The notes: generated by a model from the letters alone, not told the origin. Shown: positions 3,012 to 24,226, counted from the stretch's first letter. The stretch: DNA of 64,000 nt from GCF_988243305.1 NZ_OZ547136.1; one strand, 5' to 3'. Numbers and translations are program-made.

Positions 3012-3139
3012 TGGCGTGATTTTGCATTGGCCCGATAATGAAAGCAAAATAGTCCAACACGCCCGCAAGATAGTTTACGCCCACTTGTCAGGTTCCTATC
3101 CTAAGATAGGAATAAACTTCCCAAACAAGTGGGCTCGCT

Positions 3140-4291
3140 TTGAACGATTACCTGTTTACCTCCGAATCCGTTGCCGAAGGGCATCCCGATAAAATGGCGG
3201 ACCAAATTTCTGATGCCATTTTGGATGCGATACTCCTACAGGACCCGTGGGGTAAGGTTGCCTGTGAATGCTTGGTGAAAACTGGTGCCACTATTGTTGC
3301 CGGAGAAATATCTACCCATGCCGCCGTGGATATTGAGAAGATTGTCCGCAACACCATAAAAGAGATTGGTTACGACCATTCGCGATTGGGGTTTGATGGC
3401 AATACCTGCTGTGTATTAAATATCCTTGGCAAACAGTCCGCCAATATTGCTGACGGCATTCGCGGCCACTCGATGGAAGAACTGGGGGCGGGCGATCAGG
3501 GCATCACCTTCGGTTACGCCTGTGATGAAACGTCGGAACTGATGCCCGCCACGCTGGTATACGCCCATCGTCTGATGGAGCGCCAGGCGCAGTTGCGTAA
3601 ATCCCAACGGTTACCATTTTTACTCCCTGATGCCAAAAGCCAGGTTACCCTGCGCTATCAGGATAATCGTGTTCATTCAGTAGATACCGTTGTGGTGTCT
3701 ACCCAACACAGCCCTGACGTTTCTCTGGACGCGCTACGGGAAGCGGTCATCGAAGAAATTGTTAAACCTGTGATGCCTTCGCACTGGCTCACGCCACAAA
3801 CCCGCTTTCTGGTGAACCCTGCAGGCAGTTTTGTGATTGGCGGGCCGGTGGGTGACTGCGGGCTAACGGGGCGTAAAATTATTGTTGATACCTATGGCGG
3901 CGCGGCTTGCCATGGCGGCGGCGCGTTTTCAGGCAAAGATCCGTCGAAAGTCGATCGTTCCGCCGCCTACGCTGCTCGCTATGTGGCGAAAAACATCGTC
4001 GCCGCTGGGCTTGCCTCACGCTGTGAAGTCCAGTTGGGATGGGCCATCGGCCTGCCCCGCCCTGTTTCCGTCAGGATTAACACCTTCGGTACACAAACAG
4101 TGTCATCTGAAGCGTTGCTGAGAGGCGTTAACAGCCATTTCGATCTTAGCGTGTTCGGCATCATTACTACGCTTGATCTGCTGGTCCCCCGCTATCGTAA
4201 AACAGCCTGCTATGGTCACTTTGGTCGCGACAGCTTTCCGTGGGAAGTTACGGACAAAGCGGCGCTATTATACGAAGACGTTGGACGTTAA
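3140..4291 (+). CDS. S-adenosylmethionine synthetase (methionine adenosyltransferase) paralogue
   Basis: 383 aa; MetK hallmarks [63 protein letters not shown]. Apparent TTG start with no obvious RBS; exact start uncertain. Confidence 0.8.
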
Positions 4292-4335
4292 GCCGACGAC
4301 GCGCAGCACAGTTGAATTTATTACAGGAGAAATTT

Positions 4336-4881
4336 ATGTCTGGGAAAAGTTTAGGCTTAATCGAAACCGTCGGGATGTCTGCGGCGGTAGAAGCCGCCGA
4401 TGCCGCAATGAAATCCGCTAACGTTAGTCTGGTAGGCTATGAATTGACGAAAGGCGGCGGGATGGTGACCGTGAAGCTGGAAGGGGAAGTGGGCGCAATT
4501 AACGCGGCGGTAGCGGCAGCCATCAGCGCGGCAAGCCGGGTTGGCGAGGTGTATGCCCATAAGGTGATCGCCCGCACCGCGCAGCATATCGAGCAGATTA
4601 TTCACTCTAAAGTGACCGCCGGCGTCGCAGAACCTCAACCTGAAGTGCCTGCTGCACAACCGACACTGCAGGCTGAAAACGCGCCTTCACAGACATTCCC
4701 GGTGGTTAACCTTGATACGTCAATCAGCGCATCCTGTATGGATGTCACTGATGAAACGCTGAAGTCCATGGAGCAGCATCAACCGGTTAAACCCTCAATA
4801 GAAAACACTAAACCTACAAAATCTGATGTACCGCAGGAGGCAGCAAAGAAAGGTCCTCGTTCCAGCGGCAAGAAAAAATAA
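4336..4881 (+). CDS. Bacterial microcompartment shell protein (BMC-H, PduA/EutM-like) with about 90-aa low-complexity C-terminal tail
   Basis: N-terminal 90 aa MSGKSLGLIETVGMSAAVEAADAAMKSANVSLVGYE... align with PduA/EutM; RBS aggag upstream of ATG at 4336; tail rich in P/A/Q/E/K. Confidence 0.75.
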   Translation: MSGKSLGLIETVGMSAAVEAADAAMKSANVSLVGYELTKGGGMVTVKLEGEVGAINAAVAAAISAASRVGEVYAHKVIARTAQHIEQIIHSKVTAGVAEPQPEVPAAQPTLQAENAPSQTFPVVNLDTSISASCMDVTDETLKSMEQHQPVKPSIENTKPTKSDVPQEAAKKGPRSSGKKK

Positions 4882-5553: not shown

Positions 5554-6225
5554 TCAGCGCTGTTTTTTATAGTAGCGTTCATTTTTATCGATGCCTGTGA
5601 AGGTTGATTGGGTCAACTCCAGTACTATGCAACCCTCTCTGAAAAGGGATTTATTATCAGGTTGCAGAATGCAACTTCGCACCACCCCCGTAAACAAAGA
5701 AAAAAGCAGGAACGCCAGAGCCTCACTACGAATTTCCGAACATATTTCTCTATATAACTTACCTTTTTCGAAAATATAACATAGTAATTTCACAAAATTA
5801 TTGACATCCACCATTTTTTGTAAGAAATTTATTCTTATATCATCCGGACATTCTTCACAAAAAAACACAATATAAATTACATTCCGTAAGTGTACATTAT
5901 ATTGTAATTTAATCAGGCTACGTGATAAGCAACGATACATCGCTTTAACCGGTTCAGAAACTCTCCCATTTTTGATGGCTGTAAGCTCATCAAATAATGA
6001 TAGTGGTACCCGCTCGATGACTTGTCGCAGAAGATCTTTTTTTTCGTTGAAATACCAGTATATGGCCCCCCGAGTACAACCTGCGCGCACCGCAATCATC
6101 TCCAGTGTCGTCTTCGAAAAGCCCGTCTCACAAAAGCAGAACTCTGCCGCATCCAGGATTTGTTTGCGGGTTTCTTCCGCTGCAAATTTTGTGTGCCGCA
6201 CCACTGTTGAAATCTCCATTGACAT
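5554..6225 (-). CDS. TetR/AcrR-family transcriptional repressor
   Basis: 223 aa; N-terminal TetR HTH (TRKQILDAAEFCFCETGFSKTTLEMIAVRAGCTRGAIYWYFNEK). Confidence 0.7.
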   Translation of the reverse strand: MSMEISTVVRHTKFAAEETRKQILDAAEFCFCETGFSKTTLEMIAVRAGCTRGAIYWYFNEKKDLLRQVIERVPLSLFDELTAIKNGRVSEPVKAMYRCLSRSLIKLQYNVHLRNVIYIVFFCEECPDDIRINFLQKMVDVNNFVKLLCYIFEKGKLYREICSEIRSEALAFLLFSLFTGVVRSCILQPDNKSLFREGCIVLELTQSTFTGIDKNERYYKKQR

Positions 6226-6324
6226 CTTATTTCAGGAAATATCTCTGGGGCATTTAGTACCAACCCAACAGCCATTTACTCAGGCGCAGTATGTTGTTTA
6301 CTGCACCTGAATATTTACTCATGC

Positions 6325-7389
6325 TTATGATTGCTCAGCTTCAGTCTTATCCGATGATTTCTTATTTCTGCGGCTGAAGAACCCGGCAATTAACATATAG
6401 AAGAGAGGAATATAAAAGATTGCCAGTATCGTAGCAGTGATCATCCCTCCAACCACACCAGTACCGATGGCATGTTTACTTCCGGAACTTGCTCCAGTCG
6501 AGACAGCCAGTGGGATAACCCCCATTACAAATGCCAGCGAAGTCATAATTATCGGTCTTAACCTCACTCTCGCCGCTTCAACAGCAGCCTCTTTAATGCT
6601 TAGTCCTTCTTTCTCATGCAATTCACGAGCAAACTCCACGATAAGTATGGCATTTTTCGCAGACAGCCCTATTGTTGTTAATAAACCGACCTGGAAAAAG
6701 ACATCGTTACCAAGGCCGCGCAACAAAGTAGCACAGACAGCCCCCAGGACACCAAGCGGAACAACCAGCATGACCGAGAAAGGAATGCTCCAGCTTTCAT
6801 ACAGTGCAGCCAGACACAGAAAGACGATCAACAGTGAAAGTGCATATAGTGCAGGAGCCTGAGAACCTGAAAGTCGTTCCTCAAAAGACAAACCTGTCCA
6901 GGAAATATGGAAACCTTCGGGAAGTCTTGCCGCAATATCCTCAATTGCTTTCATTGCATCCCCGGAACTGTATCCTGGTGCCGGTTCCCCCAGGATTTCG
7001 ACAGCAGAGATACCATTATATTGCTCCAGTTTTGGTGAGCCATAAATCCATTTGCCTGTTGCAAAAGAGGCAAAGGAAACCATGTCGCCATCACTGTTAC
7101 GGACATACCATTTATCAAAATCCTGCGGTGATATACGTGAGCCGGGTTCGCCCTAAATATAGACTTTTTTCACCCGTCCACGATCGTTAAAATCATTTAC
7201 ATACATCGAACCCCAGGCTGCTGGCATTATGTTGTCGACGTCGCTCATGCTCAGTTTAAGCGCCTGAACTTTCTCGTCATCAATCAGAATCTGGAACTGA
7301 GGCTCATCGTTCATGCCGTTAGGACGAACCATGTTTAACGCTGGACTTTTCGCCGCTTCAGCAAGAAGCTGATTTCGGGCCTGGATCAT
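6325..7389 (-). pseudogene. RND efflux transporter (AcrB/AcrF-like), C-terminal remnant, frameshifted and 5'-truncated by IS2
   Basis: ORFs 6325-7083 and 7153-7389 match the C-terminal third of AcrB-type pumps (VRPNGM...[27 protein letters not shown]...[13 protein letters not shown]) in two frames; upstream part absent, IS2 end at 7482. Confidence 0.7.
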
Positions 7390-7481
7390 TTTTTCATGGC
7401 CAGCTCCGCTACGATCCTCGAGGAACAGGTCAAACCCTGTAGCATTCCCCAGTTCTGATACGGCAGGGGGCGTTTTAAAAC

Positions 7482-7838
7482 TAGACTAGCCCCCAGAATC
7501 TCCAGACAACCAATATCACTTAAATAAGTGATAGTCTTAATACTAGTTTTTAGACTAGTCATTGGAGAACAGATGATTGATGTCTTAGGACCGGAGAAAC
7601 GCAGACGGCGTACTACACAGGAAAAGATCGCTATTGTTCAGCAGAGCTTTGAGCCGGGAATGACGGTCTCCCTTGTTGCCCGGCAACACGGTGTGGCAGC
7701 CAGCCAGTTATTTCTCTGGCGCAAGCAATACCAGGAGGGAAGTCTTACTGCTGTGGCCGCAGGAGAACAGGTCGTTCCTGCCTCTGAACTTGCTGCTGCC
7801 ATGAAGCAGATTAAAGAACTCCAGCGCCTGCTGAACAA
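7482..7838 (+). mobile_element. IS2 left end, truncated about 360 bp into the element
   Basis: tagactagcccccagaatctccagacaaccaatatcacttaaataagtgatagtc matches the IS2 left inverted repeat region; orfA (InsC) sequence diverges from IS2 after ...KELQRLL. Confidence 0.75.
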
Positions 7839-7863
7839 AACGCCGGATGTCTCCCGGCTCTGA
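7573..7863 (+). pseudogene. IS2 orfA (InsC) truncated, with a foreign 9-codon tail
   Basis: [56 protein letters not shown]... is IS2 InsC-like; the C-terminal residues do not continue as IS2. Confidence 0.7.
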
Positions 7864-8030
7864 AATTAAGGCTTCGGTTATTTGCACGAAATGTTCCTTT
7901 TCAAACCCTGTTGAATTTTGTTAAGCCGGTGCAGACACACGGAAAACGCACATCAACACCGGACGGTACGATACAAACACCAGTGACTGGCGGGACGAAG
8001 GGAATGACGAATCAGTCAGGAAATGATGAC
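7836..8030. repeat. Copy B of the roughly 180-bp conserved non-coding element (inverted relative to copy A)
   Basis: See copy A; lies between the IS2 truncation point and the small ORF/alpA. Confidence 0.5.
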
Positions 8031-8141
8031 AAACAGTTGGCAGACCAGAGGAGTCAGCAGAAAGATGAGCGGGAGTGTCGCCAGCATCGGGGACAGGGCT
8101 GATTTCCGCAATACCAGCGCCGGCATTGCAACACGTTTCAT
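8016..8141 (-). CDS. Hypothetical 41-aa hydrophobic peptide, translationally coupled to the AlpA-family gene
   Basis: MKRVAMPALVLRKSALSPMLATLPLIFLLTPLVCQLFVIIS; its ATG overlaps the alpA stop in an ATGA arrangement. Not in the ORF track (below 60 aa). Confidence 0.3.
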   Translation of the reverse strand: MKRVAMPALVLRKSALSPMLATLPLIFLLTPLVCQLFVIIS

Positions 8142-8371
8142 GCTGCTGCTCCTCGTGATTCCTCAATTCGCTGCTGCATCCACTGCTCCACTTCACTTTT
8201 GTACCAGCGGCTGCTGCGCCCCAGTTTGATGGGTTTAGGGAAATGACCTTCACTGATCAGCTTGTAAAACCATTTATCGGTCATACCGGTGAAACTGGTG
8301 ATGTAGTTCATGTCGATCAGGGGATCGTCGGCACGCAGTAACACGCTGTCGTGGCTTGTTGTGGTCAACAT
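8138..8371 (-). CDS. AlpA-family phage/island transcriptional regulator (excisionase-like HTH)
   Basis: 77 aa; ...YITSFTGMTDKWFYKLISEGHFPKPIKLGRSSRWYKSEVEQW matches AlpA-family DNA-binding proteins. Confidence 0.7.
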   Translation of the reverse strand: MLTTTSHDSVLLRADDPLIDMNYITSFTGMTDKWFYKLISEGHFPKPIKLGRSSRWYKSEVEQWMQQRIEESRGAAA

Positions 8372-8439
8372 GGTCAGAATGTCCTTTGTGAGATTTATGA
8401 AGTTTGTGCGAATGCAGGGAAAGATGCTGAACCGAGCTT

Positions 8440-9015
8440 TCAGAACGGTCCTGCAGATCCGGGATAGCCGGGATTACCGGCGAGGCAACGGGCTTCCGGA
8501 TCGCACACACCACGACGATCGCGGGCGAAATCACTGAACGCCCATATCAACTCTTTGAGGATGTTTTCACAGTCCGGTGAACGACTGTCCAGCACCACAT
8601 CCCGGGTGATCTGCTTCTGATACTGCTTTGCTTCACCCGGTGACGCGAAGCCCAGTACGTTGCTCCAGGCATCCAGAATCAGCCGGTCCAGTTCAGGGCC
8701 GTCGAAATACTCCTGTCTGACACACAGCACCACGTGGTATTCCGGCTTTTCAGGATGACGGGTCAGGAGCCAGCAGAGATCTCGTCCAGGTGTTGCATTC
8801 ATCAGCGCACTGACGGTTTCGATAAAGTCCATACCGAACCAGATCTTTCTGCTGCTGAAGGTACGGTCATATTCACATGGCAGACGAAGCAGGATCCGTC
8901 GTATCCGGGAGCCGGACTGCTCACGCAGCGCACGCTCAAGGACACCGATGATTTTGTTCTGATAAGACGGCCAGAAGGGTGCCAGGCTATAGTCGAAATA
9001 AGGGATAGCATTCAT
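8440..9015 (-). CDS. YfjJ/YagK-like (inovirus Gp2 family) island protein
   Basis: 191 aa from MNAIPYF (start trimmed from the ORF track); family assignment from memory of CP4-57-type islands. Confidence 0.45.
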   Translation of the reverse strand: MNAIPYFDYSLAPFWPSYQNKIIGVLERALREQSGSRIRRILLRLPCEYDRTFSSRKIWFGMDFIETVSALMNATPGRDLCWLLTRHPEKPEYHVVLCVRQEYFDGPELDRLILDAWSNVLGFASPGEAKQYQKQITRDVVLDSRSPDCENILKELIWAFSDFARDRRGVCDPEARCLAGNPGYPGSAGPF

Positions 9016-9272
9016 AAGATATGCTCCGTTATGCGCAGCCCACAATGCGTCCTGCCCGTGAATGAGCTGACGTGTTATAGCTTGCGGATGGGGTTGATGG
9101 AATAAGTGAAGAACCGAAGCAGAACGGGAAGATCAGGTCACCGACAAGGGACAGAACACCGGATGTGGTTAAGAGTGAATGATCTCCGTTGACTTCAGTT
9201 CACATCATTAAGCAAGGTGGTAAGGTTTTACCGACGGAATGTTTCCAGGACAGGAAGCTCAGGATTTAAGCT

Positions 9273-9839
9273 TCAGAAGTGAGGGTTACGAGGACGCCCT
9301 GCAGCAGGACGTTCAGGAACTTCATTGCAGCCGTAGGCACACAGCCCGTCTTTTTGCTCTTCTTTTGCCAGATAATGCAGGGCACCGCGAATATTATCGA
9401 TGCTTTCAGGATCGTTGTGGCGCACAGGAATGTTGATGTTGTATGTATAATGCGGCTGATATGTACAGCGGTGTGCCGAACCGCTGTTATGTGTAATAGA
9501 CCGCCAGCATTCCGTAATCCGCTCCGCAAAGGGATATATTTTTTTAACCCTCTGACGATCGATCCACAAAACCGCATGCGCATGAAAACCATGATCAGCC
9601 GTCCATTCAATCACCCAGAAGAAACCAACGATATTTTCAAATTGTTCCACCTGCTCCAGCAGCATACGCAACTGCAATTCAAGCCAGCGATGATCAGGTT
9701 GTAAGAAATCGGGCGTATCTTTCCTGTAGAAGAAATCCATCCGTAAGGCCCGCAGGCAGGAATAGCGTGCCATCATTTGATTGATGTGATTGTCAAGTAA
9801 AGCGGTAAAAAACCAGTTTGGTGTGTAAGATTTAGGCAT
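9273..9839 (-). CDS. YfjJ/YagK-like (inovirus Gp2 family) island protein
   Basis: 188 aa; HxH motif (FHAHAVLWIDRQ) as in Gp2-like proteins; adjacent paralogue at 8440-9015. Confidence 0.45.
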   Translation of the reverse strand: MPKSYTPNWFFTALLDNHINQMMARYSCLRALRMDFFYRKDTPDFLQPDHRWLELQLRMLLEQVEQFENIVGFFWVIEWTADHGFHAHAVLWIDRQRVKKIYPFAERITECWRSITHNSGSAHRCTYQPHYTYNINIPVRHNDPESIDNIRGALHYLAKEEQKDGLCAYGCNEVPERPAAGRPRNPHF

Positions 9840-10671
9840 GTTGATGACTCCTGAAAGTTAATGATGTTTTAAGCTCTGTGAACGAATTAATGCTTTCGCT
9901 CATAACGGTAATAACTTACAGATGGTATTTATCAGGCATGCTGTAGCAGAATGGATACGACGGGTTATTAACGATACGCAGCATTATGCAGAAAGAAATG
10001 GATTATCTGATGGTATTAGCTAAAGAGATGAGATAAACGAGGAGTAAAGAAAATACAGACTCAATAAAACATCACGAAATACTGTAAAATACGAGCTAAA
10101 ACCCCACTACCTGGAGATTAAGAAACATATTGCGACCAATCACATCATAAACTACAAACTTGCTCTCAGTGAGTCTGCAAAAACGTGTACAAGGCCAACA
10201 CATATCTGTAACCTGATAAAATCATACACTCTCATTTAATCTGTTAAAAACAACTCACTTCAAAACATGAGCGTTAACGGGTACACGGTACCAGAATAAA
10301 ATATACCATGGATGGATAATTTTCATTTTGTTTAACATACAAGATAATCAGAAACGAACAAATATAATCAGGAATTCACTCTGTTAATTTCATTGTTTAT
10401 CCTGCGCTGTTAAACATGACGAAATCATGGATACCTTATCAAAGAGTAAACATCCAGTTAATCAGTGATGACAGAAGTATTGATATTTACCAGAATAGTT
10501 AAAACACTTCAGGTCAACAACAATCATCGTTAAGTCAATACAGTTCATTATGGATAATGACTAAAATCAATTGCTGTTTCAGTGAAGACTGATAACAGGT
10601 AGATATTAGCAACAACGTAGTAAAATAACTTATCTGAGTATCGTATGAATTACAGTAGTTATGATTGAATG

Positions 10672-10721
10672 AAGGAGAAGGTGGAGAAGGTGGAGAAGGT
10701 GGAGAAGGTGGAGAAGGTGGA
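10672..10721. repeat. Tandem repeat, 9-bp unit GTGGAGAAG, about 5.5 copies
   Basis: Direct read: (g/a)aggagaag then gtggagaag x4 then gtgga; embedded in a purine-rich plus strand within a 1.3 kb AT-rich non-coding region. Confidence 0.9.
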
Positions 10722-11157
10722 TACCATGATAATGGTGGCAATGAAGATTAGACAAGGAAGGGAGTAAGTATAATCGGGTGAGGGTCAGAGTAATGGAATG
10801 AGTAAAGATAGAGAGTAAGTAAAAACAGAGTGAATAAAGACAAAGTGAATATAATTATAGTAATAAACCTAAATTAAAAATACTTGCGTATAATGGAAAG
10901 AAATAAGAATTAAGAATAGCGTATGAGTCGTAGTCATGACCTGGCTACAAAAAGTCATTCCATCTGGCTGTCATTCAGACACACTCCCCAAACATTCGAC
11001 TACAAAGTACTAACAGAAAATTAACTGATGTATTATTCTTCTGCCCTGAATGAACATCCGGAAGTATAATCTCCCCTAGCTTCACGTTCACCGGGAAAAA
11101 CGAAGCTATTTACTTTGATGATCGCTGACGAAAAACCGAACAGGCAGTTGCATAATC

Positions 11158-12252
11158 ATGGACAACAGAGAAAAAGAGATACTCAGGATCCTGCGTCACA
11201 ACCCACTGATCCAGCAGAATGAAATTGCTGAGATTTTACAAATCAGTCGGTCGCGTGTTGCTGCACACATTATGGATCTGATGCGCAAAGGTGCGATTAA
11301 AGGGAAAGGCTACATCCTGACAGAACAGGAATACTGTGTTGTTCTTGGGGCGATTAACATGGATATCCGTGGGGTGGCGGATATCCATTATCCACAGAAA
11401 TCCTCCAGTCCGGGCAGTATTTACTGCTCTGCCGGAGGTGTCGGACGCAACATCGCCCATAATCTCGCCCTTCTGGGCCGCAATGTGCATCTGATATCTG
11501 CTGTAGGCAATGATTTTTATGGCGAAACATTACTGGAGCAGACCCGCCTGGCCGGCGTTAATGTCACCAATTGTATTCGACTGAACGGACAAAATACTTC
11601 AACTTATGTCTCCATCGCCGACCTACAGGCAGAAACAGTGATGGCGATTAATGATACCCATATTCTGCAACAACTGACGCCGCAGTTGCTGGACGCCTCA
11701 CGTATGTTAATCCGTCACGCTGGCGTGGTGCTGGCTGACTGTAATCTGACACCTGCCGCCCTTGAATGGATCTTTACGGTCGCTGACGGCATTCCCGTTT
11801 TTATTGATACAGTGTCGAAATTTAAGGCTGTTAATGTAAAAAACTGGCTTCCGCATATCCATACCCTGAAACCCACACAAAAAGAACTGGAGATATTATG
11901 GGGTTCCCCTGTCAACAATGAGACCGATCTACTCACCGCAGTGAACGCACTACATCAGCAGGGTGTGCAACAGATTTTTGTCTGGATGGGAGATGAATCC
12001 GTTTTCTGTAGCCAAAGAGAGGGAGAACAATTTCTGCTCACACCGCCCGTTCATGCCGTTGTGGACAGCTTTGGTGCAGATGATGGCTTTATGGCAGGTC
12101 TGCTTTACAGTTTTCTGGAAGGAAGTAGTTTCCAGGAAAGTGCTCACTTTGCGATGGCATGTGCAGCACTGTCACGTGCCAGCACCAGCATCAATAACCC
12201 AACACTTTCCGTTAATAACGCGCAATATCTGTTAAAAACATCCCGGGGGTAA
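11158..12252 (+). CDS. YeiI-like protein: N-terminal winged-helix HTH fused to a PfkB-family sugar kinase domain
   Basis: 364 aa; N-terminal HTH (ILRILRHNPLIQQNEIAEILQISRSRVAAHI), PfkB motifs (GGVGRNIAHNLALLG; DSFGADDGFMAG). Confidence 0.65.
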   Translation: MDNREKEILRILRHNPLIQQNEIAEILQISRSRVAAHIMDLMRKGAIKGKGYILTEQEYCVVLGAINMDIRGVADIHYPQKSSSPGSIYCSAGGVGRNIAHNLALLGRNVHLISAVGNDFYGETLLEQTRLAGVNVTNCIRLNGQNTSTYVSIADLQAETVMAINDTHILQQLTPQLLDASRMLIRHAGVVLADCNLTPAALEWIFTVADGIPVFIDTVSKFKAVNVKNWLPHIHTLKPTQKELEILWGSPVNNETDLLTAVNALHQQGVQQIFVWMGDESVFCSQREGEQFLLTPPVHAVVDSFGADDGFMAGLLYSFLEGSSFQESAHFAMACAALSRASTSINNPTLSVNNAQYLLKTSRG

Positions 12253-12270
12253 CACCCGGGATTGTATTTT

Positions 12271-13521
12271 TTATGCCAGCCCAATGAAAAAACCAGCGAT
12301 AGTCGCACTCATCAGGTTTGACAGGGTGGCCGCCGCCAGTGCACGCATGCCCAGTTGTGCAATTTCAGGTGCACGCTGAGGTGATATGGCTGAAAAGGCA
12401 CCCACCACCACACCAATGGAGCCAAAGTTGGCAAAACCACACAGTGCAAAAGAAATAATTGCGGTGGTTTTCACATCAAGCGTACTGCCTGGCTGTAAAT
12501 AGGGTGAAAGATTGAGATAAGCAACAAATTCGTTAATTGCCAGCTTCTGACCAATCAGACTTCCTGCCAGTGAAGCATCCGCCCAGTCAACGCCCATGAT
12601 CCACGCAAGGGGAGCCAAAATCCAGCCGAAAATGCCCTCAAGGGTAATATTACCATAACCAAACCAGCCTCCGATACCACCGATTATACCGTTAATCAGA
12701 GCAATAATAGCAACAAAGGTCATCACTACCGTTGCAACTCCGACAGCGATTTTCAACCCGGTCATCGCCCCGCTGGCCACTGCTTCAATAACACTTTTGG
12801 GAGGAGTATCAGTGAAAGAAAGATTTTCAAAAGTGACTTTTGATTCTTCTGTGGCCGGACTCAGAATACGGGCAAAAAGGATCCCCCCCGGGATCGCCAT
12901 CAACGACGCCGCCAGCAAATAGTCAATCGGAACCCCCATCCCGGCATAGCCGATCATCATTGAACCGGCAATCGAAGCCATCCCACTGCAGATGACAGTA
13001 AATAATTCATTACGATTCAGACGATTAATAAACGGTTTTACAATTGCCGGGATCTCGTTTTGCCCCAGGAAAATTGTCGTTACTGCCACAAATGACTCAA
13101 CTTTACTTATGTTCAGAGCTTTCTGAAAAATCCCCCCCAGAATACGGATAAGCCCCCCCATCACTCTGATGTAGTACAGCAGACTGATAAGCGCTGTAAC
13201 AAAAATGATGGCAGGAAGTACACGGAAGGCGAAGATAAAACCCGCCCCATCGAACAGTACGTCCATTTTGTCCCCTACCAGAGAGCCAAAAATAAAGGCA
13301 CTGCCCGCATCACTGTAAGACATAATTTTATGTACGCCCAGTGCAGCCTGTTCAACCAGCCATTTCCCCGGGGGGAAATAGAGCATGATCCCACCAATCG
13401 CGATTTGAAGAACCAGTGCAGCTCCTGTGGTACGTAAACTGATACGTTTTTTATTCACTGATAGTAGAAATGCAATTATCAGCAATACTGCCATTCCCAC
13501 TATACTTCTCATGATGTCCAT
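12271..13521 (-). CDS. psuT: NupC-family nucleoside transporter (PsuT/YeiM-like)
   Basis: 416 aa polytopic membrane protein with NupC-like sequence; position next to psuG/psuK. Confidence 0.65.
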   Translation of the reverse strand: MDIMRSIVGMAVLLIIAFLLSVNKKRISLRTTGAALVLQIAIGGIMLYFPPGKWLVEQAALGVHKIMSYSDAGSAFIFGSLVGDKMDVLFDGAGFIFAFRVLPAIIFVTALISLLYYIRVMGGLIRILGGIFQKALNISKVESFVAVTTIFLGQNEIPAIVKPFINRLNRNELFTVICSGMASIAGSMMIGYAGMGVPIDYLLAASLMAIPGGILFARILSPATEESKVTFENLSFTDTPPKSVIEAVASGAMTGLKIAVGVATVVMTFVAIIALINGIIGGIGGWFGYGNITLEGIFGWILAPLAWIMGVDWADASLAGSLIGQKLAINEFVAYLNLSPYLQPGSTLDVKTTAIISFALCGFANFGSIGVVVGAFSAISPQRAPEIAQLGMRALAAATLSNLMSATIAGFFIGLA

Positions 13522-13604
13522 AATGCTCTCCCCTTATACCTGAACCAGACACGGAATCTGGTTCAGGTAATTTCGGGCGACCTCACACTGCCCGTTCATT
13601 TATA

Positions 13605-14540
13605 TCAGACAATTTGTTGATATTCTTTTGCTATCTCACAGGCCAGAACTGCGTTGTTGAATACCAGCTGAATATTTGATTTCAGACTGTCACCACCGGT
13701 TAATTCTGCCACCCGTGCCAGCAGGAACGGTGTGCTTTCTTTACCGGTAATGCCCTGCACTTCCGCTTCTTTTACGGCCTGGTCAATTGCTGCATTAATT
13801 TTCTCTTCCGCCATGGCGTAAGCTTCCGGAATCGGATTGGCAACAACCAGACCACCGTTCAGGCCGGTTTGCCATTTCACTGCCATCGCGCGGGCAATCT
13901 CTTTTGCACTGTCCAGACGTATACTGACCTCAAACGGACTGGTGCGGCAAAAAAATGCCGGCAATGATCTTGTCTGATAGCCAATTAAAGGTACACCAAA
14001 TGTTTCTAAATATTCCGTGGTTAACCCTAAATCGAGAATGGATTTCGCGCCTGCACAAACCACGGTGACATTAGTATGTGCCAGTTCCTGTAGGTCGGCT
14101 GAAATATCAAAAGTGTGTTCTGCACCGCGATGAACGCCGCCAATTCCTCCTGTGGCAAAAACTTTAATTCCGGCAAGAGCAGCAATAATCATGGTTGAAG
14201 CTACCGTTGTTGCACCATGTTTTCCTTCAGCAATAACGAAAGGTAAATCCCGGCGACTGACTTTGGTAACGTTATGTCCTTCGCGACCCAGTAATTCAAT
14301 CTCATCTTTACTTAACCCGACTTTCATTACACCGCCAATAACGGCAATGGTGGCTGGTACTGCTCCGTGTTTACGTATAGTTTCTTCGACTTCAATAGCC
14401 GTCTGAGCATTCTGAGGAAAAGGCATACCATGTGAGATAATTGTTGACTCGAGAGCAACAACAGGTTTTTTACTGTTAATGGCATCCTGTACTTCCGGTG
14501 AAATTTGCAGTAATTCAGAAGAAATGGTTATTTCAGACAT
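13605..14540 (-). CDS. psuG: Pseudouridine-5'-phosphate glycosidase (PsuG/YeiN, IndA-like)
   Basis: 311 aa; close to E. coli YeiN by memory (…VVALESTIISHGMPFPQN…GGIGGVHRG…). Confidence 0.7.
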   Translation of the reverse strand: MSEITISSELLQISPEVQDAINSKKPVVALESTIISHGMPFPQNAQTAIEVEETIRKHGAVPATIAVIGGVMKVGLSKDEIELLGREGHNVTKVSRRDLPFVIAEGKHGATTVASTMIIAALAGIKVFATGGIGGVHRGAEHTFDISADLQELAHTNVTVVCAGAKSILDLGLTTEYLETFGVPLIGYQTRSLPAFFCRTSPFEVSIRLDSAKEIARAMAVKWQTGLNGGLVVANPIPEAYAMAEEKINAAIDQAVKEAEVQGITGKESTPFLLARVAELTGGDSLKSNIQLVFNNAVLACEIAKEYQQIV

Positions 14541-15468
14541 TCTGTTTCTCCACTAAGCTTTTAACGTTAGCAACAGATAATTCAGGATTATTGGTATACT
14601 CACTGGCCAGCGCCATTGATGAACACCCCTGTGCAAATCGAATGGAATCAATAAATGGCATATTATCAACCCAGCAGGAAGCCAGCCCTGCCATCATGGC
14701 ATCCCCTGCCCCCGTAACGTTCACCACCTGTGTTTTTACTGGCGGCGACCAGCCGCTGGCTCCGTACAGTTCGCTGTAATAAACTCCATCCCCCCCCATG
14801 CTGAGCACAAGGCGATTCAGACCATGTGTATGGAACCATACCGCCACTTTTTCAGCATCATTCCGATCTGAAAGCGAAATACCACTGAGTGTTTCTGCTT
14901 CAAGCCGGTTGGGCTTGAGAGTATGAATTTGTGCTAAATGTTCACGAATTTTGACACACTTCCATGCAGATACCGGGTCAACAAATACCGGAACCTTACC
15001 TGCATTATTCAGTAGCCAGACAAGTGTTGACTCACTGATATTACAGTCTGCAACAATAACCTTCGCTCCCTGAATAAAATCAATATGCTGTGATAAAAAC
15101 TCAGCTGAAATATGTTCACTAATCGTCATGTCATTTATTGCCACCAACATTTCACCGGTTTTATCGAGAAGTGATAAATAACTTGAGGTATTTTCTCCAT
15201 TAACAATCAGACATTTATCAACATTAACGCCGGACTGAGTCGTTTGTGCTAATAATGATTGCCCGTAGAAATCATCTCCCACAGCTGACATCAGCCATGA
15301 GTTTTTACCCAGCAGAGCAAGATTATGTGCAATATTACGCCCCACACCTCCGGGCGTGAATTTAATCTTCCCCGGGTTAGAATCAGCATAATTTAAGGAG
15401 GCATACGAATATCCGGCTATATCTATATTGGCAGAGCCAATTGTGATGATGTATTCCTTATCACACAT
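14533..15468 (-). CDS. psuK: Pseudouridine kinase (PsuK/YeiC, PfkB family)
   Basis: 311 aa from MCDKEY with RBS aggag; PfkB motifs GGVGRNIAHNLALLG and GAGDAMMAG; overlaps psuG start by 8 nt. Confidence 0.7.
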   Translation of the reverse strand: MCDKEYIITIGSANIDIAGYSYASLNYADSNPGKIKFTPGGVGRNIAHNLALLGKNSWLMSAVGDDFYGQSLLAQTTQSGVNVDKCLIVNGENTSSYLSLLDKTGEMLVAINDMTISEHISAEFLSQHIDFIQGAKVIVADCNISESTLVWLLNNAGKVPVFVDPVSAWKCVKIREHLAQIHTLKPNRLEAETLSGISLSDRNDAEKVAVWFHTHGLNRLVLSMGGDGVYYSELYGASGWSPPVKTQVVNVTGAGDAMMAGLASCWVDNMPFIDSIRFAQGCSSMALASEYTNNPELSVANVKSLVEKQNV

Positions 15469-16003
15469 GGCACATCTCCTGACATTTAAAAACACAAAAA
15501 TAATAAATCTGTATTTCTATTCGACCACGCAGATAGAGTTGAACATATATTCAAAATCAAACATGTGTTCACTTTATGCCTGTTTTTAGAAATGTAAATA
15601 CCAGTCCAGAATCAAAAAGTGAAAAATGAAAACAGGATCACAATTTTTATCGTTAATCCATGTTGTCCTTATCCGGTTTTATGGCGTTGCCCTGTTTCAT
15701 CAGGTTATTTGCATGAACGGAATAAATACCGGAGATGACAGGAAACACCATAAGATATTCAGGATGTTACGATGAATTTCATGAGGATCGCTAAAAATGA
15801 GCCTGTTTAATAATTTTATGCAAACACCTTATACCAGGGCTTCCCTTCGGAGATATCAATGACCCCGACAGCGCTCTCACTGCCCTGGTTGCTGGTTTCC
15901 GATATCCTCTTAACTTGCAGGCTCATCCCGCATTTCACTCATGGTGAATAAGGCACATAATGGTCTGGAGTCAATTCTGGCTTACGATTTGTAAATATAA
16001 TAA

Positions 16004-16456
16004 TTAAAGCGTTCTCAAAAGTCTGGCTGGATTACCGGCATACACGCCTTTTACCAGCACGGGCTTTGTAACCACACTACCAGCCCCAATCACTGCTCCA
16101 CTGCAAATTTCTGTTGTTAAAATAGTCGCTCCGCTACCCACTGTTACAGTGTTACCTAATACGATACGTATCCAGCTTTCTGCAGAGGCATCGGGACCAC
16201 CACACTTAAAAAGATCATTAGCAAAAGTTACGCCATGACCGATGAAACAGCCATCACCTAAAATGACGTTCTCACAGATGAAACTGTGGGACTGAATTCG
16301 GCTCCGCTTGCCAATGATGCATCCCTTCTGTATTTCCACAAAGGGACCGATAAAAACATCATCCCCCAGTTCACATTCATAGAGGTTTACTGGCATGACG
16401 ACTTTCACATTTTCACCAAATTTCACATCACGAATGCCGCTGTTAATAACGTGCAT
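16004..16456 (-). CDS. Hexapeptide-repeat (left-handed beta-helix) acyl/acetyltransferase
   Basis: 150 aa with repeated [LIV]G-x-x-x-x hexapeptides (IGKRSRIQSHSFICENVILGDGCFIGHGVTFAND...VTVGSGATIL). Confidence 0.55.
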   Translation of the reverse strand: MHVINSGIRDVKFGENVKVVMPVNLYECELGDDVFIGPFVEIQKGCIIGKRSRIQSHSFICENVILGDGCFIGHGVTFANDLFKCGGPDASAESWIRIVLGNTVTVGSGATILTTEICSGAVIGAGSVVTKPVLVKGVYAGNPARLLRTL

Positions 16457-16976
16457 ATCCGTTGTATCCTCCCTCAGGATGATTCTTATCAGAACATTTC
16501 ACCTGTCAGAATATTCCCGGTAATGCGATACAAGATCCTGTCTCACCGGGTACCACGTGTTATTGCCCGTATCCTTTTGCCCGTTACGAGTGTACAACCG
16601 GTTTTGTATTTTGCAATCCAGGCCTGTTACACCAGAGCATCCTCCCACTGCCCCCTCACTGCTCAGTCCGGGATTCAAAGTCATCTTCCAGCACTAAACC
16701 TCATACCAGTTCTGAACCTTCCCTCGCCAGCAGTCAGGATCGTACGGTTCACCACTATCCTCTTCCGTGAATGGCAGTAAGTGAGCAGCACCAAAATAAA
16801 TCGGTACTTCCAATGACAGACAGTGAAAGTGTAAGGGGAAATATGAACATGAGAATGGAAGCAGATAAAAATACCGTTTCATGACTTCAGGGCGATTATC
16901 AGAAAACGAGCTAAGGGCGTCAGCCAACGTCCTGACCGTGGTATACGCTCAGGCACCGGATGCTGTTTTACCGGGT

Positions 16977-17708
16977 TCACCTGCCATCCAGTAGACGCCC
17001 CGGCCCACGACTGCAACCATAATTACGTTGCCCGGAACCGTCATGCTGCTTCGTCTCATATTTCACGAGATAACTGGCTCTGTTCCGGGCTTTCTGCAGC
17101 GCTTCCACATCACCACGCTTGATCCAGAGCACAGCGGCTTCACCTGGCTTTTTGTCTGAAGCCTTCCTGGTATCAGAACATCCACCCGACAAAGGCGTGT
17201 CATCGGAAGAAGGGCGAGCATCAGACGATGTCGGTTTACGGGAAGGCGTCCACCTGGAAAAATGGACCAGGCCATCGCCTTGCCAGGGCTCAAGATGCAG
17301 GGCGCTGCACCATGCCTCCTGGATCATCGTCGCCAGCGAAGACGGTTCGCTGAAATCCCCGAGCGAGCACCAGGTATCTTTGTTGAGCAGTAATATCACG
17401 TGATAATGTTTCCTGCCATACATCTTGCCGAACTCCCGGCACCAGAAATAACGCAGGCTGGTTGCATGCACACGCTGATTGGCCCATCTTTTTTTCCGCT
17501 GGTAAGCCTGAATTTTGGCTTTCAGGGATGCGAAAAAACGGGAAATCACCGCTGAATCCGGATCGGGATCCATGATGGTGACAGGCATATACTCAGGGAA
17601 ACGTAAATCCACCCGGATTAACGAGACGGCACGGTGTTGCACCAGGGCACTGTTGAGAATACTTTCAAAACGGGATAACCAGTAATCATTGTGTATTGGT
17701 TGATTCAT
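16977..17708 (-). CDS. YfjJ/YagK-like (inovirus Gp2 family) island protein, third paralogue
   Basis: 243 aa; HYHVILLLNKDTW motif; resembles the proteins at 8440 and 9273. Confidence 0.45.
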   Translation of the reverse strand: MNQPIHNDYWLSRFESILNSALVQHRAVSLIRVDLRFPEYMPVTIMDPDPDSAVISRFFASLKAKIQAYQRKKRWANQRVHATSLRYFWCREFGKMYGRKHYHVILLLNKDTWCSLGDFSEPSSLATMIQEAWCSALHLEPWQGDGLVHFSRWTPSRKPTSSDARPSSDDTPLSGGCSDTRKASDKKPGEAAVLWIKRGDVEALQKARNRASYLVKYETKQHDGSGQRNYGCSRGPGRLLDGR

Positions 17709-18377
17709 GATGAGAGATCTCCGTTGATTTGGATTGACTTCACATCATTAATCACTGCGGTAAAACTTTACGGCATCCCGCCATTGAGCAACGCCAATGG
17801 CTCCTGATTAAAACAGAATGAATCGTCCCGTAACGAAAAGATAATCCTGCACACGACAGCAAAACGTAAAACAACAGCATGAATGAGCTAAATGTCTAAA
17901 GAAAAACTGCCTTTTCACATTATTTTTCAGCGAGTAATCATACCAGCATCCCTAACATACGAAATCGCATCGTGATCGATCGCTGATTCGCCGAACAACT
18001 GATCGAATACACCGGAATCTGCACTAACATCCTGATGGGTAACGGAAGACTAAAAAACCAGTGTTCTATTGATTGCACGGAATGCCTGTGCGCTGGCCTG
18101 ACCAGTAAGCACAATTCTACGAGTAGTAAGATATCTACTCCAAAACCATGCGCAGTAGCCACCATATGTTGCCAGGGTGAAAAATAAGCTCAGAGCTATA
18201 GGGGAGTAATTCCCGTTAATGTCATCGCCGTACCTCAATCAGCTCACAAACTGGCTGAAACGTTAAGCTGAGGCCTTTATTCTTCAGATGTATTTTCCGG
18301 TTTACCTGTAAATTATCTTCTGATATTTATCACATTAGTAATTGTGCTGATTATCTACATACTTCAAGGTCTGAAAT

Positions 18378-18908
18378 ATGAAGCTAACAGAAGAAAGTCT
18401 GAATCTAGTCATTGACATCCTGAATGATTTGATCTGTGAAGGAAAAATGCTGAACGATGTGGAGCGCAGATCTCTGCTCAATGCAGTTATGGCAATTACA
18501 GCGGTAAAAGAACGTTCTGTCGTATCTGTATCATCCCGAAAAGAGCAAAGTAAGAAGGAGAAGAAGGAAAGAGAGATCGATCCTCGTTTCCCAAATGCTG
18601 GTGTGGCATGGAATGAGGCAGACGAGAGTTTATTGCGAGATGTTCTGGAGGATGTACCGGACGATGAAATTGGTAAACACCTTTTCTGGCTAGCAGAGAA
18701 ACTAGGGCGAACCCCGTACAGTGTAGCCTGTAAAGTCAGACAAATTAAGAAATTACCTGCAGAATGGAAGGATCAATTTCGTAAAATCTCTGACAGGATC
18801 CGTAGTTCTGGAATGTCAGTCAGTGAATATCTACAACGCCAGGGACTGTTAAGCCCAGAGTCAGGGGAAGAAAACAATCCTGTCAGTCATAACAACAATG
18901 TAGCTTAA
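18378..18908 (+). CDS. Hypothetical protein, 176 aa, lysine/glutamate-rich linker
   Basis: ORF on coding-like sequence bounded by AT-rich non-coding DNA; no recognisable motif. Confidence 0.45.
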   Translation: MKLTEESLNLVIDILNDLICEGKMLNDVERRSLLNAVMAITAVKERSVVSVSSRKEQSKKEKKEREIDPRFPNAGVAWNEADESLLRDVLEDVPDDEIGKHLFWLAEKLGRTPYSVACKVRQIKKLPAEWKDQFRKISDRIRSSGMSVSEYLQRQGLLSPESGEENNPVSHNNNVA

Positions 18909-20070
18909 TCCTGAAGAAGATGAACAGTTTATACTCTTTAAACTGTTCCCTTAATTTTAGAAAAACAGTTTGTGTAAGTGCATGCTCCAACATTCTGAAG
19001 GCGTTATTTCTTACAATACATCATAATCATTGGCAGATCCTCATCTGAATCAAAACACCACAACCAATCATCACACTTTTTCTGAAAAGAGCCTTATGAT
19101 GAAGATAATCACCTTACGCTGAGAAAAAACACCAGGGCCAGTTAATCACCTTATCAATCTCGCCGTTACAAAATCATCCATAAGCCATTTAACAGTGTTA
19201 TCGCAAACTCACAGTAAATCGCATCAGGTTACCTCAATCGGATTTGAGTTAATTCACTGGGCTTTACGTAAAGATACTTTTCTCAGGTTAACGACTAAAA
19301 CACGAAAACTCAGAAAAGGTTAAACACAGGTTCAGTAAAATCGAATATCATCTTGATTGCTTAAACAGGACAGAGGGTTTTGTAGTGAGGTTAACTGATT
19401 TTAGCGATCGTAAAAAAAGGACTAACAAATTTACTAAACTGGATGTGTTTCAGACAAAGCAATGTGTACAGCAATGCTTAATGAAAATACTTGTATGATT
19501 GTCTATGAAAATGCGTGTATAACACTTAGTGAAGATATGTCTGTATAATACGTATATAGTACCATTCCCGACATTCTCAATATCTTCAGACATCCATGCA
19601 GACTGAGTGTTGATTTCAGTTTTTCACGGCCAGCATGGATCTTTACTGGTCAAAAAACAGACAGGTTTACTCTGGAATTATTTTTTTGATTCCGTCTTCA
19701 GAACAACAAAAACTCGTGATAACTCTACAACAAACTATCGTAATTGGCTTCTGTAACCCCGTCACTTTTCCTAAGAAACGTGCCCCCATATGATGCGGGA
19801 GAGATAAGTCATCGTATACAGGAAACACTGCCAATCATAATATGGCGTCATTCAGTAATTTTTATCCATAATCAGATTAGCATATCATGATTATTGAATA
19901 TTATGATATATAGCTCATATGAATGTGTTATTATCTGTAAGCGTTAAGCATCACATTGCATAACCATACTAAGCTGGCTAATCATCAACATTTTTATATG
20001 TAACTCATTGAAATTAATTATATGTTTTTTGTGAATAATTAATATGTAATGTGAAATTAATATTTTTACA

Positions 20071-21294
20071 TCATGAGCGCCATTTAAAATTACCATCCTG
20101 AATATCATATGACAATATATTTTCACTAAAGCATGAATTGTATATGTCTATTAACTCTGGAAAATTATCAGGATTCACCTTCAAATTCACTTGAATGTTA
20201 CGCTTAATTTCACCCAGCAGTTCTTCATGTGTGGATTTTATTATCCCTTTCTCATAATCGATAAATACACACATGTTCTTTATGAATTCAAAACCTTTTC
20301 CTGTATACAGTTTAATGAATGCCACCAGAGCAAACATTTCAAGATATAGCCATAATGCCACGTTAGTTTTTTGCAAAGTATAAAAAATTGAATTCGCCAC
20401 TCTTTTACTTATTGCTCTTTTATACTGTGATCGAGCAAGATTCAGTAGCGGAAGCTCTCGTTCAATAAATGAATGTGAAAAGACTGGATAAATTGATGTA
20501 GGAAACCTTTCAGGTCTTATGATATTTTCTATTTCCACCATAAATCTATCCATAGAAAGAAAGTCACTTTCTTTTTTTATTCTGGTATAGAGACCGCCTT
20601 TATTTCTTTCTGAGGTTTGTTTTCGTGCTATCCCCCCCAACACTTTCTCTAATTGTTTATTTATCTTCGTATAATTAAATACAACCATTCTTCTTATCAT
20701 CCTCGGAAGGATAATAATATCAGTGCTTGAATCACTTGAGCGGCAATTATTATTTATCCATGCAACTTCAAGTTGCAGTATCGGAACATTAACTTTTCTG
20801 GGGTGAATATCTCTCTGATATCGTTTTTTGTATGCGTTTTCATTAAGATATTCTCTGCTGTAGAGAAACTTATAGCAATATAATCTGATAATATCTTTTA
20901 TGTAAAATTTAAATAGTTCACCTGTAACAGATATATGTTTTCTGCTCAGTAACTCCTGTGTATTAAGCCATTCCCGTGACCGAAGCACACCCTTGTGAAA
21001 ACTTTTTCTTACTTGCTTTGAAGCACGCCATTGATGTAATATTTTTGCGTCCTCAATAATTCTCTTTCCCGTTTTATTTTTTGCAGCATCTCTTACTCTA
21101 TAAAATATCTCCCAGTCCAGACTTTTGTCATATCTACTAATTATACGACAAATATTCCTGACCCGACGATTCTCTTTATTTCGCTTCCATAGCTTATAAT
21201 GATCATCGCATAACCTTAAGGCATTTGCCTCATCAAATTCTGAAACAGGATTACTGCATTTTTTATTCCGACAGATACCTTTGTTTTTAGCCAT
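20071..21294 (-). CDS. Hypothetical basic protein, 407 aa, N-terminal Cys/His cluster (CRNKKCSNPV...CDDH), very AT-rich gene
   Basis: Long uninterrupted ORF in AT-rich DNA, divergent from the GTPase gene; no family recognised. Confidence 0.5.
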   Translation of the reverse strand: MAKNKGICRNKKCSNPVSEFDEANALRLCDDHYKLWKRNKENRRVRNICRIISRYDKSLDWEIFYRVRDAAKNKTGKRIIEDAKILHQWRASKQVRKSFHKGVLRSREWLNTQELLSRKHISVTGELFKFYIKDIIRLYCYKFLYSREYLNENAYKKRYQRDIHPRKVNVPILQLEVAWINNNCRSSDSSTDIIILPRMIRRMVVFNYTKINKQLEKVLGGIARKQTSERNKGGLYTRIKKESDFLSMDRFMVEIENIIRPERFPTSIYPVFSHSFIERELPLLNLARSQYKRAISKRVANSIFYTLQKTNVALWLYLEMFALVAFIKLYTGKGFEFIKNMCVFIDYEKGIIKSTHEELLGEIKRNIQVNLKVNPDNFPELIDIYNSCFSENILSYDIQDGNFKWRS

Positions 21295-21394
21295 ACTCTT
21301 CTTCCCGTCAATGGAAAAATTTTCACACCCATATTACCTGAATGATAAACCGGATTAGTGTGATCCGGTTCAGTGAAATCAACAGGATACCGGT

Positions 21395-22279
21395 ATGCCA
21401 TTCAGCAATTCTTCCCTCTCCGCGCAAGTGAAATCATATCTGACGTTTCTTCCTGAAGAAATTCGCCAGAAAATCCTTGAACATCTCCACGGTGTTATTC
21501 ATTACGAGCCCGTGATTGGCATTATGGGTAAATCCGGCACCGGCAAAAGCAGTCTGTGTAATGCCATTTTTCAGTCCCGTATCTGCGCCACGCATCCCCT
21601 GAACGGCTGCACCCGCCAGGCTCATCGCCTCACCCTGCAGATTGGTGAACGCAGAATGACGCTGGTCGATCTGCCCGGCATTGGTGAGACACCGCAGCAT
21701 GATCAGGAATACCGGGAGCTTTACCGTCAGTTACTGCCGGAACTGGATCTGATTATCTGGATCCTGCGGGCTGATGAACGTGCGTATGCTGCCGATATTG
21801 CCATGCATCAGTTTTTACTGAATGAAGGTGCAGATCCCTCGCGTTTTCTGTTTGTTCTCAGCCATGCCGATCGCGTGTTTCCTGCTGAAGAATGGAATGC
21901 CACAGAAAAATGCCCATCCCGTCACCAGGAACTCTCACTGGCAACTGTTACAGCCAGGGTGGCAACCCTGTTCCCGTCATCATTTCCGGTACTCCCCGTT
22001 GCTGCGCCTGTCGGCTGGAATCTTCCGGCGTTTGTGTCGCTGATGATCCACGCCCTGCCACCGCAGGCAACCAGTGCGGTTTATTCACATATCCGGGGGG
22101 AAAACCGCTCTGAACAGGCCCAGAAACACGCACAACAGACTTTTGGTGACGCCATCGGGAAAAGTTTTGACGACGCCGTTGCCCGGTTCACTTTTCCGGT
22201 CTGGATGTTACAGCTTCTGCGTAAAGCCCGGGACCGCATTATCCGCCTGCTAGAAACACTGTGGGATCGTCTGTTCTGA
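21395..22279 (+). CDS. YeeP/YfjP/YkfA-family GTPase (CP4-type island)
   Basis: 294 aa; P-loop GIMGKSGTGKSSL and DLPGIGE motif. Confidence 0.7.
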   Translation: MPFSNSSLSAQVKSYLTFLPEEIRQKILEHLHGVIHYEPVIGIMGKSGTGKSSLCNAIFQSRICATHPLNGCTRQAHRLTLQIGERRMTLVDLPGIGETPQHDQEYRELYRQLLPELDLIIWILRADERAYAADIAMHQFLLNEGADPSRFLFVLSHADRVFPAEEWNATEKCPSRHQELSLATVTARVATLFPSSFPVLPVAAPVGWNLPAFVSLMIHALPPQATSAVYSHIRGENRSEQAQKHAQQTFGDAIGKSFDDAVARFTFPVWMLQLLRKARDRIIRLLETLWDRLF

Positions 22280-22481
22280 CACACTCACGCCGACAGGATG
22301 TGTCGCTGGATTAATGAGTATTCTTCTTTTTATGAAATCATCATTAAAAATCAGATAATTAAAGGAATATTTTTTCTGCTGCATTTTATTCCTGATTATT
22401 CAGATACGACACATCCTTTCAACACCATGAGGCATAATAACATCATGAAATAAAAGATGTTTTCTTACGGAGTGCACATCT

Positions 22482-23162: not shown

Positions 23163-23309
23163 TCGCCGGCCTGCCAAAGCCGTCCCGACAGGTATGGAGA
23201 CAATATGTTGAACAGAAAACTAAATATACGGCTACGTCATTCCCTGAACAGTCACTGCATACCTTCCATCATTATCAATAACACCGTACGTTCATTTCAG
23301 AGGTCAGTC

Positions 23310-23987: not shown

Positions 23988-23992
23988 CCGGT

Positions 23993-24226
23993 ATGTCGGA
24001 CTGTCACCCTGTTTTATTGCCCGAAGGCCCTTTCTCACGCAAACAGGCAATGGCTGCCACAACAGCTTACCGCAATGTGCTTATTGAAGATGACCATGGA
24101 ACGCATTTCCTGCTGGTTATCCGCAATGCCGAAGGGCAGCTACGCTGGCGGTGCTGGAATTTTGAGTCTGACGCCGGAAAACAGCTAAATTCGTACCTCG
24201 CCAGTGAGGGAATTCTCAGGCAATAA
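23993..24226 (+). CDS. Small CP4-type island protein (DUF905-like, YkfF-like)
   Basis: 77 aa; position and size match ykfF-like genes; family from memory. Confidence 0.4.

Follow-up and report, generated by a model that had tools for sequence, protein, structure and literature searches.

A complete, apparently foreign pseudouridine salvage cassette on a mobile tRNA-Phe island of Escherichia coli

Four genes and their control region

We examined a 64,000-nucleotide stretch of NZ_OZ547136.1 (GCF_988243305.1), referred to here as the window, in which four genes of pseudouridine catabolism (yeiI-like, psuT-like, psuG and psuK) occupy positions 11158-15468. A preliminary description had assigned these genes to this interval, and all four open reading frames (ORFs) are indeed found there, with family scores far above chance level; in RefSeq an identical sequence carries these four gene annotations as well. 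The yeiI-like gene (11158-12252, plus strand) encodes a 364-aa protein in which an N-terminal winged helix-turn-helix (HTH) is joined to a PfkB domain (NCBIfam NF007416, 732 bits, cutoff 561). The other three genes lie on the minus strand and form an operon transcribed in the order psuK, psuG, psuT. Its first gene, psuK (14533-15468), encodes a pseudouridine kinase, with an NF007355 match (648.3 bits, cutoff 540) that spans residues 10-319 of the 320-aa ORF; the ATG start at 15468, preceded by a conserved AGGAG ribosome-binding site, agrees with RefSeq. The psuK stop overlaps by 8 bp the start of psuG (13605-14540), the gene for pseudouridine-5'-phosphate glycosidase, whose product matches Pfam Indigoidine_A (PF04227, E = 2.9e-133) over model positions 1-291 of 291, and a psuT-like gene for a NupC/CNT nucleoside transporter (12271-13521; TIGR00804, 507 bits, cutoff 442) completes the operon as its third member. 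The preliminary description had read the HTH-kinase fusion as divergent from a transporter-glycosidase-kinase operon, an arrangement that has to be reversed on both counts: the yeiI-like gene and the operon converge tail to tail, with 18 bp between their stop codons, and the kinase gene is transcribed first and the transporter gene last. A hairpin at 12240-12262, overlapping the yeiI-like stop codon, has an eight-pair stem (six pairs G-C) with a T-run on both strands, making it a candidate bidirectional terminator that could serve both convergent transcripts.

The sequence features expected of PsuK, PsuG, a PsuT-like CNT transporter and YeiI were all present, except for the canonical kinase motifs of YeiI. 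In E. coli PsuK, experiments have defined a pseudouridine-specific triad, Ser30/Asn143/Lys170, together with the catalytic Asp256 (within GAGD) and Lys185 (PMC9061257); the island PsuK retains S30, N143, K170, K185 and D256, and also Y97, N112, M114 and W169. The two catalytic residues of YeiN, Glu31 and Lys166, the latter forming an iminium intermediate (PMC7722734), are both kept in the island PsuG, which matches the solved E. coli YeiN structure, 4GIJ, with E = 6.7e-180. The transporter is nearer to PsuT (90%) than to the paralogue NupX (84%), and pseudouridine transport is putative even for K-12 PsuT. Also conserved in the island PsuG are K93, H137, D149 and N289, which we take to be active-site residues. 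Because dN/dS lies between 0.03 and 0.27 in comparisons between mobile lineages, a 96% identical E. coli variant included, purifying selection has acted on all four genes during their mobile phase. Homology to the K-12 pathway, which has been characterised, predicts that pseudouridine is imported by PsuT, phosphorylated by PsuK to pseudouridine 5'-phosphate and cleaved by PsuG at its C-C glycosidic bond, yielding uracil and ribose 5-phosphate.

The mobile cassette as a whole, delimited by the stretch common to an accessory cassette of Salmonella enterica, runs from 11009 to 15648 and so takes in the sequence upstream of psuK. When the 230 nt 5' of psuK were aligned across 13 loci representing eight genera, the elements followed a constant order: a CRP-like site, the -35 and -10 hexamers, two palindromes and a conserved ribosome-binding site. 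The CRP-like site, TGTGAtcctgtTTTCA (15627-15642, minus strand), has a TGTGA half-site that is invariant in 13 of the 13 loci, and its centre lies ~70 bp upstream of the inferred transcription start. A consensus scan places a candidate sigma-70 promoter of psuK at 15571-15598 on the minus strand (TTTACA, 16 nt, TAAAGT), both hexamers being conserved across genera. Directly downstream of the -10 hexamer on the same strand stand two operator-like palindromes of the GAACAnnTGTTC type, at 15541-15552 and 15559-15570; palindromes of this kind are conserved in all the aligned loci and occur upstream of psuK elsewhere, and the pair at 15541-15570 is the sole paired occurrence in the 64-kb window. The boundary of the transferred segment, 15648, falls just past the CRP-like site, leaving all control elements inside, and therefore the cassette moved together with its control region. 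The operon would thus be read from its own promoter, the CRP-like site and the paired palindromes over the transcription start having come along with it.

An extra copy of foreign origin on a mobile island

The preliminary description had proposed that the module might be an extra, horizontally acquired copy lying inside a tRNA-Phe island, and comparison across genomes upholds each part of that proposal. At a coverage of at least 80%, the cassette is present in 385 of 5426 complete E. coli genomes (~7%), with 376 matches at no less than 99% identity over the full length and 11 at 90-95%; many carriers are human clinical isolates. A sensitive search with the island psuG found the gene in 5404 of the 5426 genomes at 5801 places, the non-island copies having ~81% nucleotide identity to it, and places exceed genomes because island-type copies (at least 95% identity) sit in 385 of them. 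The backbone psu locus is present in ~99.6% of complete E. coli genomes, and the carrier NZ_AP022049.1 has it intact, as fruA-psuK-psuG-psuT-yeiL-rihB-nupX-yeiI-nfo, at 1731302-1738844. Given the excess of psuG copies and this intact backbone locus, the cassette is not the sole psu locus of its hosts: carrier strains have two pseudouridine loci.

The second locus is a close counterpart of the first in organisation. The K-12 backbone locus, yeiI with psuT-psuG-psuK (yeiM-yeiN-yeiC; Preumont et al. 2008, as cited in PMC9061257 and PMC12506659), shares with the cassette its four gene families, the transcription order psuK>psuG>psuT, all tested catalytic and specificity residues and the promoter layout of CRP-like site, -35/-10 hexamers and paired palindromes. 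It differs in lying between nfo and fruA, whereas the cassette rides on a pheV/pheU island, and in containing nupX-rihB-yeiL, which the cassette lacks, so that the yeiI-like gene there abuts psuT across the 18-bp gap. The proteins, moreover, are just 75-90% identical (YeiI 75%, PsuT 90%, PsuG 90%, PsuK 79%), nucleotide identity between cassette and backbone is 71-77%, and dS against K-12, at 1.4 to >4, is saturated. In a bootstrapped neighbour-joining tree built from all four proteins in concatenation, the island cassette has the Salmonella one as its sister (100% bootstrap), the pair being nested in a Citrobacter amalonaticus/sedlakii clade (99%), while the carrier's own backbone copy clusters with K-12. 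Protein identity, saturated dS and tree placement together indicate that the island copy is foreign and not a duplicate of the backbone.

The compact layout of the cassette is itself widespread on chromosomes. In a survey of backbone psu loci that took one genome per species, the order nfo-yeiI><psuT-psuG-psuK-fruA was found in Citrobacter, Enterobacter, Buttiauxella, Kluyvera, Kosakonia, Phytobacter and E. albertii, and the nupX-rihB-yeiL insertion in E. coli plus a few others. This insert, between yeiI and psuT, also occurs in Citrobacter amalonaticus S646 and Phytobacter diazotrophicus and is missing from their close relatives; it seems to have been gained or lost repeatedly.

The closest relative of the island copy is the S. 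enterica cassette (GCA_010633625.1), which aligns with it in a single 4652-bp blastn match at 84.9% identity (window 11009-15648 against 14465-9820 of that locus). The two have in common a 364-aa YeiI-like protein, a tiny convergent gap, the right-hand boundary and proteins 85-95% identical, but they differ in surroundings, the Salmonella neighbours being tcf-type fimbrial, pyrimidine-nucleoside phosphorylase and IF-2B-family genes and a ParE/RelB pair, and the second operator is more degenerate in Salmonella. The phosphorylase gene and the IF-2B-family gene, possibly a ribose-phosphate isomerase, lie directly beside the Salmonella cassette (6739-9490 of the locus), with which they may form a larger nucleoside-salvage module. 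Among chromosomal homologues, the nearest are in the C. amalonaticus/sedlakii backbone (YeiI 81-82%, PsuT 92-94%, PsuG 93-94%, PsuK 82-86%), which has the same compact four-gene layout but is a core locus flanked by nfo and fruA, with a convergent gap of ~100 bp; it is too distant to be the direct donor. Homology to the Citrobacter backbone covers 11133-15648, from ~23 nt inside the 3' end of nfo to upstream of the psuK promoter. These ~23 nt are all that is kept of nfo, and no fruA remnant was found at the cassette end. A one-genome-per-species contig scan and a search of 5.8 billion proteins returned nothing outside E. coli closer than the Salmonella cassette (PsuK 89%), and no E. coli genome had a copy nearer the Salmonella form than ~85%. 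The cassette would have been cut out of the nfo-yeiI...psuK-fruA backbone region of a Citrobacter-like enterobacterium and would since then have travelled through Salmonella and E. coli as mobile cargo.

Within E. coli, the island or its psu segment occupies several chromosomal settings. Window positions 1-27597 are 99.986% identical to the island of strain WP4-S17-ESBL-08 (NZ_AP022049.1), and 35053-36595 form the terminal part of the island in the window; the right edge, at ~36600, abuts gspM/yghD, followed by gspL and sslE. No tRNA gene was found in the window. In strain M217 the same island, ~65 kb long and with the psu cassette within it, extends from the tRNA-Phe gene pheV (beside yqgA) and a tyrosine integrase gene to gspM, and in NZ_AP022049.1 it extends from the tRNA-Phe gene pheU, with an identical integrase protein, to cadC. 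Its start at a tRNA-Phe gene with a tyrosine integrase, its interruption of the backbone and its variable presence among strains are those of a tRNA-Phe island. In IAI39 an 18.6-kb cassette-bearing segment (window 8114-26655, 98.3% identity) sits beside setC, adjoining dsdCXA and a choline-utilisation cluster. The cassette is therefore island-borne and the island mobile among sites, since the same island and integrase occur at pheV and pheU and the psu segment lies beside setC in IAI39. We had also considered a cadC flank at the pheU site for the window; the tetR(B) sequence and realignment led us to reject this, giving instead a Tn10-like insertion and a gspM flank on the pheV side.

The 96% variant used above (96.1% identical, in other E. 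coli contigs) shares window positions 10848-15715 and has IS21 and DUF3987 genes as neighbours. No island-type cassette was found on plasmids: matches labelled as plasmid were either psuKGT of the Escherichia type or chromosomes under a wrong label. The former, psuK-psuG-psuT without yeiI beside ISVsa5, is carried by conjugative E. coli plasmids that measure 180-300 kb and have IncHI-type transfer genes, one of them an mcr plasmid (for example pCP53-mcr, NZ_CP033094.1 148775-151986; identity ~90% to K-12, 91% to E. albertii), a separate mobilisation of the Escherichia-type psu operon.

Other cargo of the island surrounds the cassette. A complete grp locus for a glycyl-radical propanediol-utilisation microcompartment (grpA-S) occupies window ~677-4881 and extends further upstream, with a reverse-transcriptase/maturase remnant between grpO and grpP; the IAI39 psu segment instead adjoins dsdCXA and a choline (cutCD) microcompartment cluster. 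The stretch 5554-7470 looks like decayed island cargo: beside a gene for a TetR/AcrR regulator is an RND efflux permease pseudogene, truncated and interrupted by an internal stop, and after it comes a transposase fragment. On either side of the cassette are YagK/YfjJ-like ('inovirus Gp2 family') genes, three paralogues in all (8440-9045, 9273-9839 and 16977-17708), and similar ~60-nt sequences lie at 9176-9231 and 17711-17771. Flanking repeats D2 and D3 (8.5 kb apart, ~74% identity) were considered as capture sites and rejected; they lie upstream of paralogous YagK/YfjJ-like genes and probably represent promoter regions, themselves paralogous, rather than sites of recombination. The interval from psuK to the third of the YagK/YfjJ-like genes contains a hexapeptide-repeat acyltransferase gene (16004-16456), which is outside the transferred cassette. 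Upstream of the cassette, an unannotated spacer of 34.5% GC contains a tandem 9-bp repeat (GGAGAAGGT, ~six copies, 10665-10736), which on the minus strand would encode a PPS-repeat peptide within a 68-aa ORF. Further downstream, a Tn10-like transposon with a 9-bp target duplication (27598-35052) is inserted between cbtA and a DUF4942 gene; it carries IS10/ISVsa5-type transposase genes (27705-28913 and 33728-34945), tetR(B) (29294-29920), tet(B) (29951-31204) and an extra IS3-family element. The island of NZ_AP022049.1, 99.99% identical in other respects, lacks this transposon.

A probable regulatory role for the YeiI-like protein

The fourth gene of the cassette accompanies psuTGK at all the loci examined, the two mobile cassettes included. 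Its product comprises an HTH_24 domain (residues 1-48) and a PfkB domain (58-348), and the PfkB domain retains S83, N196, K223 and D309, the counterparts of the Ser/Asn/Lys triad and the catalytic Asp. The canonical PfkB motifs expected of an active kinase are missing: GADD and TxxE take the place of the GAGD and NxxE of PsuK and the HTH-PsuK fusions, not only in the island protein but also in K-12 YeiI and in the orthologues from Salmonella and Citrobacter. From these motifs a kinase role for the YeiI-like protein is doubtful. A curated critique has judged plain 'pseudouridine kinase' unsuitable as a name for YeiI, since a psuK mutant already loses the phenotype (PMC12506659). Our searches found no solved structure of YeiI, the nearest solved protein being PsuK, and no paper on an island-borne psu locus or on YeiI function. 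The label 'regulator/kinase' first given to the yeiI-like gene is a reasonable, if putative, one.

The fusion proteins offer a comparison. The three-gene operons of Yersinia, Serratia and Pasteurella have just one kinase, an HTH-PsuK fusion whose HTH closely resembles that of YeiI. Such operons, found in Yersinia, Serratia, Photorhabdus and Pasteurellaceae, resemble the cassette in joining a winged HTH to PfkB, as YeiI does, and in continuing with psuG and psuT; they differ in that the fusion is the only kinase, keeps GAGD and NxxE and is 57-60% identical to PsuK (YeiI 39%). In the island cassette PsuK and the YeiI-like protein appear to have divided the two roles of the fusion between them. 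A scan for operator-like motifs ahead of the fusion operons of Yersinia, Serratia and Pasteurella gave only weak palindromes with an AACAnnTGTT core, and these lay far upstream.

Because the pseudouridine-binding residues are kept but the kinase motifs are altered, the YeiI clade probably acts as a sensor-repressor. We infer that YeiI descended from a bifunctional regulator-kinase and is now mainly a pseudouridine-responsive regulator, probably acting at the palindromes. The convergent yeiI-like gene would most likely encode the cognate repressor of the operon, its PfkB domain sensing pseudouridine or its phosphate and its winged HTH then letting go of the operators. The proposal in its full form is tentative and somewhat less than an even bet: that an ancestral HTH-PsuK split into PsuK and YeiI, and that the yeiI-like product is a pseudouridine-sensing repressor acting on paired GAACAnnTGTTC operators, which would make the four genes a self-contained, ligand-controlled cassette. 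If the repressor proposal is true, it would explain why the four genes move together among Citrobacter-like chromosomes, Salmonella and E. coli islands, since regulator, operators and enzymes would then be one self-contained unit.

Alternatives and significance

Taken together, these observations favour a complete, functional and self-regulated extra pseudouridine salvage cassette of ~4.6 kb, horizontally acquired and carried as cargo of the ~65-kb tRNA-Phe island, a reading to which we give a probability of roughly 0.7. Several points weigh against it. All cassette function, expression and activity included, is deduced from homology, and YeiI is uncharacterised (PMC9061257, PMC12506659). On the regulatory side, the CRP-like site of the island copy has a weak right half-site, a scan for operator-like motifs found none ahead of the yeiI-like gene itself, and a global regulator could bind the palindromes instead. 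As to origin and carriage, a close donor was not found, the best matches being Citrobacter (82-94%) and the Salmonella cassette (85-95%); and no distal tRNA-derived direct repeat closes the island, not even the last 14 nt of tRNA-Phe being found anywhere in the window. The distal island end appears decayed.

Other explanations would account for part of the same evidence. The cassette might be a silent hitchhiker that rides with the island and is neither expressed nor useful in E. coli, as its function is redundant with the backbone locus, its GC content is 44-48% against 47-52% for the backbone, and the flanking spacers, at 34-39% GC, are typical of xenogeneically silenced DNA; yet four intact ORFs in 376 genomes at no less than 99% identity, the low dN/dS between mobile lineages, the 96% E. 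coli variant among them, and a promoter and operator region retained complete make this unlikely. Improbable, too, is an altered specificity, whereby the cassette would complement the backbone by importing and degrading another nucleoside, for instance a modified uridine or a C-nucleoside other than pseudouridine. Divergence from K-12 is greatest in PsuK and the YeiI-like protein (79% and 75% identity), and the phosphorylase and IF-2B-family genes adjoining the Salmonella cassette hint at wider nucleoside salvage, but all known specificity and catalytic residues are kept (PsuK S30, N143, K170, Y97, N112, M114, W169 and D256; PsuG E31 and K166), and the divergence equals that among backbone orthologues of different genera, which presumably have the same function. 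That the strain's own backbone psu locus was simply duplicated into the island is hardly credible: K-12 gene families and relative orientation do match once nupX-rihB-yeiL is removed, but nucleotide identity of just 71-77% and saturated dS speak against it, and the tree sets the cassette with Salmonella and Citrobacter, apart from all Escherichia backbone copies (99-100% bootstrap).

In the horizontally acquired salvage cassette that we favour, a locus already known is present as a foreign allele, on an island of a familiar kind and with genes already annotated in RefSeq. By itself, another tRNA-linked island bearing a ready-to-use catabolic cassette that duplicates a core pathway is unsurprising, a case of ordinary accessory metabolism. 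What it chiefly offers is a basis for comparison: the cassette boundaries, the transfer of yeiI along with psuKGT, the footprint of promoter and operators and the differences from HTH-PsuK fusions lead to a testable hypothesis for the uncharacterised yeiI and define a minimal 4.6-kb unit with which pseudouridine utilisation could be tested. If the repressor proposal is true, a function would be assigned to yeiI, an orphan gene of E. coli. Pseudouridine is abundant in urine, and carrier lineages, mostly human isolates, could, if the proposal holds, gain extra capacity to scavenge it.

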